Part shown: positions 2,501 to 37,097 of the stretch, piece by piece
How positions within the stretch are numbered: the stretch's first letter is position 1
Layout of the letters: each line of letters opens with the position of its first letter
Assembly: GCA_036785375.1 (NCBI GenBank)
Contig: JAWMAR010000010.1
Coordinates: 4,092,001 to 4,156,000 of the forward strand
Direction of reading: 5' to 3'
Source: Leucoraja ocellata
Taxonomy: Eukaryota
Length of the DNA: 64,000 nucleotides
Program-made: the position numbers and the translations under genes
The notes under the pieces: model-generated
Databases searched by the model: none
What the model saw: the letters and a program-made list of their open reading frames with translations, nothing else
What the model was told of the DNA's origin: nothing

Positions 2501-3889
2501 GCTATCGACATTTTGACATGTTCACTTATGGCAACGTAGAACAGTACAACATAGGAACAAGTGCGTCGGCCCTTAATATCCTTGCCGAACATGGTGCCAC
2601 GTAAAGCTCATTGTTTCTGTTTGTACGTGTGCTATATTTCTCCATTCCTCACATATCTAGATGCTACTGTCATATCTGCCTCCACTAACACCCAAGGCAG
2701 CTACCAGTCTCAACTCTGTGCGCATATCTTCATGAAACATTGGCCCAGTGAACAGATAGTCATTTGTATCCTAGCTGTTGTTTATTCCACAATCATCTGC
2801 TAAAATCGCGAAGATGTTATCGGAATCTGGTGTGTTTATATTGCCTGATATTTCGCTAGATTCTGATCAGGGAAGCATTTTATAAGAGTGGCTGTGGGAA
2901 TATTTAGGACATTGAGACTCTCGAAAGTACATATAGTGACCCAATCTCAAATGTTTCAATTTTCAATCTTGAAATGTAAACGTTTTGCAGTTAAATCTAT
3001 GGACGTTAAATAATACGGCATGTTTGGTTCAGTCCGAGTATCCTTTGGTCAAGATGAAAGGTGCTGGGTTCGAATGGTTTCAATCATCCTGCAAATGGAC
3101 ATTGTGGAAGAGCAGCCTGCTCTCCAGAAGTGGTGTCGCATAGTTGCATTCCACTCACACAAACGCCGTGTTATTCTCTGCCATCGTATTGCAGGGAAGT
3201 CCCCTTTACACAAAATAATATCTGATAATCCTGTCCGGGAAATCTCAGGTCCCTTTACTATTGCTGCCAGTAGCCAGAAGAGAATCCCTCTGGTCAGTTG
3301 CGAAAAACACATTGAGGAACATTGTTTTTTTGTGTTTATTTTAGATGAGAGGGCAGCTGCACGCAACCGACACATTGATATAAATAATCTCAGAAATAGA
3401 AGTCCCAGATTAGAACACTGACAGACAGAAACAGCATCTAATTGTCCCTACCAATGCAGTACAGAATTAGGCCGTGTGTGATGCAAATCTTCAACCGATT
3501 CAAAAGCATGGTGAATGTTTCAGATGGTTTTCTGCTCGTCATTTGATAATATAATGGAGATTGTATCCACGTTCACTTGAGGTAAAGAGATCCAGAACTC
3601 GTAGTTTGTGCAAACATTCCAAAGGCTGGAATGGGGAGAAGGAAATTCCTTGGCCCAGTGCTCTCACCATACCAACTCACTCTTTTATTAAACCTCTCCC
3701 AGGACTGTCAATACTCGAATGTCAATGTGAAGGAAACCATGTTCTGCCTGAAAGGCTGAGGATAGTGTGAGGGGGAGACTTGTATCAACATGTAATACGT
3801 GTATTCAGTTATCGGATGGAAGTAAAGTACCCTGAAGCTGACACATGATGATACTGGCCTGGTTGTACGTGATGAGGCAGAGAAACATT

Positions 3890-33471: not shown

Positions 33472-34759
33472 TAATGAAAAGCCTACAATGGAGGTGTGGA
33501 AAGAATTCGATTCCTCCATTGACCTCACGTACTTAGATATTTCTTCAAGTGGAGATTCAAGTGAACAGCAAAATAATATTCTGAAGTGAATCAGAAATAT
33601 AAAATCACATCATTTTATTTGAACAAGATATGATAAAATAGACTCCCTCGGAGAATTCAGTTGATTCGCGCCAACTGCCAATATCGTTAAAACATATAAT
33701 CACCGTCGAGAATGATATCTTCATTGCCTTGTTTGTGCTGGTCTAAAAATGTTTGGAAACAGAGATGAGCTGATTTAAATAAACGCTGATTTAAACAGCC
33801 CCAGACCCAGGTTCATTTACTGAAGGACAGAAACAGAATCAATGTTTCCCCAGAGGCGGAAAGCAGATAAAGTGAGAAAACAATGCAAATCTCTCAACAG
33901 ATTACATCAGAGACATTTATTTTAAATTGTCAACGTTCTCTCCTGTAAAACAAAATAAAGTTGAAGTGCATATGGATGATGTTAGTCAATAATATTGCTA
34001 CAAAGCTAGGTTAACTGAGAACATGTATCATATCCCTTTATTTACCGACAATGGTTGGGATCAATAACATTCTCTGCATAGATTTAAATGTCACACGTGA
34101 CAAATTCACAGATGCATAGAAAATACAATGATAAATTAACATTCCAGTCATAGAAGAATACTCTGTTGGAGCGCAGGAAACTTTAATTCCCCGCATGCAC
34201 CTTAAATTTTCGACAATCCTCGTGTTTTCCTCACAAATCGGTTAACTACTGTTTCTATCTTTCTCCTTAGATAACTCTAGTGGATTCTTCTTCAGATACC
34301 TCTATTAGATTTTTCCACACCATCTGCCCAACCAGTGCTGTCTGAATCATTGAAACACTATCCAACAAATATGCTCATTGATTGATTGGTTAGAATGTGC
34401 CTTCATTCAACTTTGATCTTTGGAAGCAGCATCTGAAAATCAACACCACATGAATCATCCCGAATGCCGATCATTTCTCCAATCCCTCCACAGATCTACA
34501 ATTCCCCTCCTGCACGGTGCCATCCATTAATTTCCTTCCGATCTCTTCATGGCATTTTGATAGAATTTTGTGTTTGCTTTGTTATCAGTTTCCTCTACTG
34601 CCTTTTATGTAACCAATCTCGATATTGACATTTTATCTGTATGGCTGTATGGTGACCACACATTTCACTGTACCAACTGGGACATGTGACAAATAAATGT
34701 GTCTTGATATTGGAATGGACAGTCCCAATAATGTTCGAACGGCTCATATTGATAACAAC

Positions 34760-35831: not shown

Positions 35832-35877
35832 ATGATGTCGGCGGTTTCACTCAGTCTGTTCCTGGCGTTAATAGTCC
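35832..35877 (+). CDS. IGHV: VH leader exon (MMSAVSLSLFLALIV plus phase-1 C)
   Basis: ATG at 35832, hydrophobic signal peptide, donor GTGAGT at 35878. It splices in frame to the acceptor at 36037, giving ...IV-R-VHS. Confidence 0.93.
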
Positions 35878-36036
35878 GTGAGTAATGAGATGGACAAATT
35901 CCTCACGCGAGTTTCTACACCATTCCCCTCCTACCCACTCTAGAACCCTCCCAATTTATTTCCTATTGATAATTATAGTGGGGGATTAATGGTCAATATT
36001 TTAACCTCGCCATTCATGCCTTTCTTTAACTTGCAG

Positions 36037-36340
36037 GTGTCCATTCCGATATCGTTCTCACTCAGCCCAAGACAGAGGCCGCCACTCCTGGAGGCTCCAT
36101 CACACTGACCTGTAAAGTCAGCGGGTTCGCTCTTAGCAGCTACGCGATGCATTTGGTCCGTCAGGCCCCCGGGCAGGGGCTGGAGTGGCTGCTTCGCTAC
36201 TTCAGTTCTTCTAACAAGCAATTCGCTCCGGGGATAGAAAGCCGATTTACTCCGTCCACAGACCATTCGACTAACATATTCACCGTGATCGCCAGGAACC
36301 TGAAGATCGAAGACACCGCTGTCTATTACTGTGCGAGAGA
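36037..36340 (+). CDS. IGHV: VH exon ([97 protein letters not shown])
   Basis: Acceptor ttgcAG ends at 36036. The V-set motifs [14 protein letters not shown] and [10 protein letters not shown] are present, followed directly by a heptamer. Confidence 0.97.
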
Positions 36341-36722: not shown

Positions 36723-36801
36723 GGTTTTTGTGCGGGTCTGTCTCACTGTGTACAACAGTGGGTCACGGTGCTGCAAACAGCGACTTCCCCGTACAAAAAC
36801 C
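36723..36801 (+). other. IGHD: D1 segment (TACAACAGTGGGT, 36751-36763) with 5' 12-RSS and 3' 22-RSS
   Basis: GGTTTTTGT 36723-36731, 12 nt, CACTGTG 36744-36750. CACGGTG 36764-36770, 22 nt, ACAAAAACC 36793-36801. Confidence 0.95.
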
Positions 36802-37033
36802 CGGACACCTAGTTTTCTCCTGCTCCAACCTACAAGCACCGTAGGAGAGGCCGTGTGAAGCAAATTCAAATGAAAGTTCACCGCTTAAAGTTGCATGGAT
36901 TGTTTTGAGAAATGTCCAGCTGTCTTATTTTATATGAGTTTTAGAAGAACAGCGTTTAGCTTTATAAGTGACAGCGAAGAGTGCCCTGGGACATCCTTAG
37001 TTAGCAGTACATGCATCAGTTCTTGAAGAGCGA

Positions 37034-37097
37034 AGTATTTGACATGGCATGTTTCACTGTGTATACTGGCACAGCGGTTCCTACCAATACAAAAACA
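37034..37097 (+). other. IGHD: D2 segment (TATACTGG, 37062-37069) with 12-RSS on both sides
   Basis: AGTATTTGA 37034-37042, 12 nt, CACTGTG 37055-37061. CACAGCG 37070-37076, 12 nt, ACAAAAACA 37089-37097. Confidence 0.93.

Follow-up and report, generated by a model that had tools for sequence, protein, structure and literature searches.

Two short non-coding modules, here termed A and B, lie upstream of the VH gene of an IgM heavy-chain cluster in the skate Leucoraja ocellata and carry, both on the plus strand, an intact octamer ATGCAAAT, a signal that is absent from the promoter of that gene. The DNA analysed, referred to below as the window, is a 64,000-nucleotide stretch of contig JAWMAR010000010.1 (positions 4,092,001 to 4,156,000). 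A and B are old paralogs of 130-320 bp that have been copied together with the IgM unit, and we would give about an even chance to the interpretation, drawn from their sequences, that they are duplicated distal B-cell enhancers of the Oct/OCA-B type. What makes them likely candidates for this role is the octamer signal, which they keep and which shark heavy-chain genes reportedly lack.

The window contains one complete cluster-type IgM heavy-chain locus in the order V-D-D-J-Cmu, the IgH organisation typical of cartilaginous fish. The VH gene, the likely target of the modules, occupies 35835-36340 on the plus strand (leader exon 35835-35877, an intron and V exon 36037-36340), and is followed on the same strand by D1 (36751-36763), D2 (37062-37069) and JH (37462-37510), which span 36744-37510 once the recombination signals are counted, and by Cmu1-4 with a membrane exon of the same cluster at approximately 41523-49610, as placed from open frames. 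The 60 kb preceding the window and the 20 kb following it gave no second VH-like or Ig-like frame. In the VH gene the conserved framework-2 Trp is replaced by Leu (xLVRQ, 36154-36156); the same holds for all five IgM VH genes translated (window, C5, C388, C1461 and C1544), a family trait rather than a defect of the window's copy.

Module A, at its full extent of 3218-3534 (plus strand), can be aligned with a third lineage on contig C356 (67% over 318 columns; see below), and its main octamer (3481-3488) lies about 32 kb from the VH leader. The core of module B (33771-33903, plus strand) lies ~1.95 kb upstream of the leader, with its main octamer at 33883-33890. The preliminary description had aligned 3340-3560 with 33760-33970 by eye: the homology is real, but the alignable part is narrower, namely 3376-3500 in A and 33771-33903 in B by pairwise alignment. 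Here 85 of 123 aligned pairs are identical (69%), and the score of 58.5 was reached by none of 1000 dinucleotide shuffles (mean 22.6, sd 3.6, z=10), which answers the doubt that the resemblance might not exceed that of shuffled sequence. The similarity stops at the core, since widening the compared segments to 1.3-1.4 kb adds no extension (0/200 shuffles as high). When module A is scanned across the whole window, B is the top non-self match and the next distinct site scores 37.5. The shared blocks first seen by eye are all present at the positions given for them, including the identical 57-nt distance from GACAGAAACAG to the octamer in both modules (3424 to 3481; 33826 to 33883). GACAGAAACAG occurs in the window at these two places only; it is exact in 19 of 34 A copies and 37 of 39 B copies and is altered in the third lineage.

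The association of both modules with IgM VH genes extends across the genome. By BLAST, A is present in 34 copies (92-100% identity) and B in 39 (90-100%), and IgM VH genes number 40 (73-100% identity) among 150 matches scored of 410 candidates. Among the VH genes so scored, A lies 29-69 kb upstream (median 50) of 33/40 and B 2.3-6.3 kb upstream of 38/40, and in every pair the module and its VH gene are on the same strand. Altogether, 73 of the 77 module copies belong to IgM-type units, and the proposal that matches to the two copies would co-locate with IgM clusters is borne out. The clusters on C5 and C388 match the window colinearly at about 85-93%, transposon fragments included, over a stretch that starts upstream of A and reaches ~51,900, which argues that the two modules and the coding segments have recently been amplified as one unit. 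The A tree and the B tree show the same division into two contig groups. Module A had initially been regarded as an orphan, or as left over from a neighbouring cluster without coding segments. Neither label fits a sequence that is a standing part of the IgM cluster unit and belongs, with the V-D-D-J-Cmu segments downstream of it, to one duplicated unit.

Seven VH genes lack an A copy, and for five of these only 2-44 kb of contig exists upstream (the 44 kb belong to a cluster on C1356, of which 10 kb were examined). Two clusters lack A despite having room for it, C2360:28357 and C1544:188787; the latter lacks B as well and sits directly behind another cluster. Both are truncated in their 5' part and keep open VH frames, and such clusters without A, or without A and B, are natural controls for function. 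A true orphan does exist for module B: the copy at C524:493258, on a 1.3-Mb contig, has no IgM VH among the scored matches, and the 10 kb ahead of it contain nothing specific to the unit.

The third lineage, C, consists of four copies on C356 (71-74% identical to the A query), two in each arm of a ~200-kb palindrome. The palindrome spans about 2,280,000-2,474,970 with its centre near 2,371,300; its arms are 97-99% alike and each holds a 20-kb tandem duplication. In the tree each of the three lineages is a clade of its own, with bootstrap values, not fully settled, of 100/100 for B, 98/96 for C and 92/89 for A. Mean identity is 62% for A-B, 72% for A-C and 60% for B-C, against 94-96% within families, and the flanks of the three cannot be aligned to one another. 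Profiles built with one lineage left out recover the missing one (E 5e-23 for A, 8e-7 for B and 2e-26 for C) and give no further match at E<=1 in 1.14 Mb of DNA, so that alignment and profiles alike uphold the suggestion of a duplicated module. When 24.5 kb of non-repeat segments from the IgM unit were compared with C356, the 320-bp module was the one common block that did not look like a scattered repeat; it is also the only upstream paralog pair of such kind. No Ig domain was found around lineage C in 269 kb of C356 by motif search and tblastn. The 300 unmasked open frames of the palindrome gave only retroelement-type Pfam matches of weight, in a search that small exons could escape, and the sole gene identified nearby is an SLC43A3/ENBT1-like exon ~117 kb away (E 6.5e-15).

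Region A was also found in 4/4 public runs from four other organisms at about 93-94%; these organisms are too closely related for its presence there to show constraint. In two other organisms, C variants were found, one with deletions inside the main octamer and another with a 1-nt spacer deletion. One of the runs contains contigs of a further module variant, with deeper coverage than the A-type contigs, which aligns over the core only (window 3375-3458) and whose loose ends combine features of all three lineages.

A and C have a common layout which, counted from the main octamer, places TGTTTA(T/C) at ~-148, CAGCTG at ~-128, an octamer-type site at ~-104 and CAGATG at ~+40; the first and the two CANNTG motifs are putative sites for Forkhead/Fox and E-box-binding factors. 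In the window these are, all on the plus strand, the Forkhead-type site TGTTTAT at 3333-3339 (30/30 A and the same position in 4/4 C; B has TGTTTGT at 33730), the E-box CAGCTG at 3354-3359 (30/30 A, 2/4 C, none in B), the upstream octamer-like site ATATAAAT at 3378-3385 and the E-box CAGATG at 3521-3526 (12/30 A, 4/4 C). The upstream site reads ATGTAAAT in 12/30 A copies and GTGTAAAT in 17/30, is a perfect ATGCAAAT in 4/4 C, and reads ATTTAAAT in 30/30 B (33773). Lineage C, with two perfect octamers, has the most complete motif set. B retains the main octamer, TCCC 32 nt upstream of it and the degenerate ATTTAAAT site; its positional E-boxes are gone, and CAGATG occurs at another place in 11/30 copies. 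A CAGGTG site of the muE5 type occurs in none of the A, B and C copies. As judged from sequence, the main ATGCAAAT is intact at all loci examined (30/30 A and 30/30 B, out of 34 and 39 copies in total, and 4/4 C). The octamer by itself is ordinary and not enriched in the window, with 6 observed against 4.8 expected and 34 of 100 shuffles giving at least 6. Under a grammar set post hoc, 5 of the 52 octamers in 613 kb belong to a combination of Fox site, E-box and two octamers, and each of the five is in a copy of the module. The motif content fits the idea of a B-cell regulatory module put forward in the preliminary description.

The promoters of the VH genes have no such signal: in five of five clusters, no octamer ATG(C/T)AAAT was found on either strand within 1.5 kb upstream of the V exon, which agrees with the statement that shark IgH genes lack an upstream octamer (PMC2435157). 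Two V genes that look light-chain-like carry ATTTGCAT at a distance of no more than about 300 bp from the V frame; this and all other V-gene class labels used here (light-chain, IgW, TCR) are judged from sequence. An OCA-B-family gene (PF09310) is present on C34. OCA-B requires the A5 of the octamer, and shark orthologues of OCA-B are reported to exist (PMC13043367); A5 is kept in A, B and C.

A plausible history begins with an ancestral module of Fox site, E-box, octamer, octamer and E-box that would have been duplicated long before the present clusters multiplied, as suggested by an A-B branch length of ~0.86 changes per site compared with at most ~0.1 within families. Oct1/Oct2 with OCA-B, E-proteins and FoxO may bind A and B. 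From their positions at 29-69 kb and 2-6 kb, the bound modules could loop to the TATA-like VH promoter and supply the Oct1/Oct2-OCA-B input that this octamer-less promoter is missing, and such looping might help one cluster to become accessible to rearrangement and transcription. Partial redundancy between A and B would account for the loss of A in some clusters. Several findings speak against an enhancer function: octamers are not enriched in the window, variation within the families gives no sign of constraint, B has lost the positional E-boxes and has ATTTAAAT as its upstream site, the two clusters without A, one of them also without B, keep an open VH frame, and lineage C is remote from Ig domains and decays in other organisms.

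The loss of A and the decay of C, together with the mixed evidence on constraint, bear on a second explanation, which we consider rather unlikely, namely that the modules are neutral relics, either of a short duplication that took place long ago or of a low-copy repeat now extinct, with an octamer present by chance, carried along as passive passengers of the amplified IgM unit. Comparison between the lineages argues for constraint. All three retain one short block despite unalignable flanks, and its 87-column core is equal in length across A, B and C, which is improbable at the local indel rate (6.5 indels expected from an indel-to-substitution ratio of 212 to 1916; P=0.007 with boundaries chosen post hoc), although the pairwise aligner places two compensating 2-nt gaps inside this block. 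The longest stretch on which all three lineages agree, 10 columns, is ATGCAAATCT, made up of the octamer and CT (P=0.022, again with post hoc boundaries). Variation within the families argues the other way and would suit a passive passenger: diversity in the core does not leave the range seen in the flanks, at 0.030-0.047 for A (flanks 0.025-0.086) and 0.030-0.043 for B (flanks 0.023-0.043), and polymorphism is not significantly lower at those columns that the other two lineages conserve (p=0.07-0.17 for A, 0.66-0.81 for B, pooled p=0.24). The presence of the modules in most clusters may therefore simply reflect recent amplification. A neutral origin would equally accommodate the likeness of whole units between clusters, transposon fragments included, the chance-level frequency of the octamer, the decaying C copies in their Ig-free palindrome and the disappearance of A from two clusters; it accords less well with the lack of terminal inverted repeats and with a genome-wide total of only ~77 copies by BLAST and patterns.

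A third reading, which appears improbable, is that the modules are promoters rather than enhancers, either relics of an ancestral octamer-type VH promoter or starts of sterile transcripts that open the cluster by transcription in the manner of mouse PAIR elements, which are VH-linked repeats with lncRNA promoters (PMC10390877). The octamer does stand in the ATGCAAAT orientation relative to VH, and this orientation is fixed in all pairs, but co-duplication would give a fixed orientation as well. Furthermore, no conserved TATA-like block follows the octamer in the three lineages, there is no V remnant near A, and the window has no match, allowing up to one mismatch, to a 12-bp CTCF consensus applied as a plain string, which is a weak test. 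The weakest alternative, and likewise an improbable one, is a functional element without B-cell specificity, serving Oct1 or another POU factor or chromatin or matrix attachment, that the IgM unit captured from a C356-type locus; it would suit the full motif set of lineage C, the lack of an Ig domain there and its single identified neighbour, but 73 of 77 copies lie in IgM-type units, and the surroundings of the three modules gave no match at gathering level to an snRNA or any other Rfam family.

Several other identities were considered and rejected. The concern that the module might be a dispersed repeat unrelated to Ig loci, such as a MITE or SINE, is met by the small number of copies, mostly in IgM-type units, as counted by BLAST and two patterns that far-diverged copies may escape. 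The queries for A, B and C drew 38, 39 and 40 candidates, all scored, compared with 357 for an intron query touching a repeat. The pattern TKTCCC-N32-ATGCAAATCT has 81 genome matches, of which 72 are A or B, 4 are C and 5 lie elsewhere (reversed control, 0), and a second pattern has 56, every one A or B; terminal inverted repeats were not found on the module (best arm scores 8-9.5). A protein-coding exon is rejected, as in every one of the six frames 7-10 of 10 sequences contain stops, and the module differences by codon position (12, 16 and 15 of 29) show no third-position bias. No snRNA-type distal element or known RNA was recognised, no Rfam match coming near the gathering score at six loci (A, B and the four C copies). 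The octamers are not VH promoter octamers, since the leader lies ~32 kb beyond the octamer of A and ~1.95 kb beyond that of B, and no V segment occurs near A.

The module profile has no match elsewhere in the cluster; both modules lie 5' of VH, whereas known IgH enhancers occupy the J-C intron or a place 3' of C. With 10-40 kb sampled per V locus, it also has no match around 11 IgW- or TCR-like V genes (200 kb), nor did it find one in 210 kb covering 16 light-chain, TCR and other V loci, additional flanks of IgW and the surroundings of the OCA-B gene (best E 2.5). At seven loci, IgW-like V genes have an octamer pair ~430 bp apart, 10-20 kb upstream. As a relative of the module this pair was rejected, one site being repeat-like DNA and the other having a repeat beside it; the repeat beside one site recurs in the window.

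Among described systems, the catfish IgH enhancer Emu3' offers a close likeness, and as enhancers A and B would act in a similar way. Its core consists of two variant octamers and an E-protein site, and one variant, ATGTAAAT, which binds Oct1 (PMC1800861), also occurs in 12/30 A copies; both systems have two octamer or variant sites in a short core. The catfish enhancer sits just 3' of IGHM1 and its function has been demonstrated (PMC1800861), whereas A and B are putative enhancers and lie 5' of VH. As far as the published motif description allows comparison, A and B further differ in forming two paralogs per cluster and in having CAGCTG and CAGATG rather than muE5. With the mammalian VH promoter octamer and the Emu and 3'RR enhancers (PMC13043367), A and B share a perfect ATGCAAAT, A5 and the heavy-chain orientation; the mammalian octamer is promoter-proximal, whereas A and B lie 2-69 kb from the leader and neither in the J-C intron nor 3' of C.

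Mouse PAIR elements resemble the modules as repeated non-coding elements of a few hundred bp tied to VH genes. However, they bind Pax5, E2A, CTCF and YY1 and drive lncRNAs (PMC10390877), whereas A and B have no CTCF consensus, and the word octamer does not occur in the main text of that paper. The mouse 5' Igh DNase I cluster HS1-3 likewise combines B-lineage factor sites with a position at the 5' edge of IgH, but it is single copy with PU.1, E2A and Pax5 sites (PMC2981565), whereas A and B are multicopy and octamer-based. Its deletion is reported to leave Igh unaffected (PMC2981565), a warning that elements like A and B can be dispensable. A further comparison is with shark IgH clusters, whose promoter without an octamer (PMC2435157) is matched in 5/5 clusters here; that report concerns the nurse shark, whereas the distal octamer modules 2-6 kb and 29-69 kb upstream were seen in the skate genome.

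The autonomous IgH miniloci number in the dozens, and A and B bear on the question of how each of them is switched on. No cis-element for the IgH miniloci of cartilaginous fish is described in the literature searched, and older papers or supplements may describe upstream sequence. It is conceivable, if doubtful, that the IgM clusters of cartilaginous fish moved octamer control from the promoter to an ancient 5' enhancer pair that is copied with each cluster, so that each minilocus would have its own Oct/OCA-B kit and compete with light-chain genes for factors. If so, A and B would be the first IgH enhancer type identified in elasmobranchs, a stated premise of the published model of shark H-chain exclusion would be undercut, and the Ig-free C356 copies would mark either a further B-cell locus or the origin of the module. 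In any case, A and B are short, defined and cluster-linked targets for regulatory tests.

Other octamers occur within the cluster. The JH-Cmu1 intron contains a 118-bp block twice, in inverted orientation and 84% alike (39550-39667 and 40603-40717), each with a perfect octamer (39646 and 40617) and a GTGGGAATT motif; it is unrelated to modules A and B. Both octamers are kept in two of three other clusters checked, with one altered in the third, and ~300 bp around the blocks were found in 40 IgM clusters. By its sequence, this block is a candidate Emu-like intronic enhancer and perhaps a stronger lead than A. A further octamer lies on the minus strand of the Cmu3-Cmu4 intron (45321-45328) and is kept in 4/4 other clusters checked.
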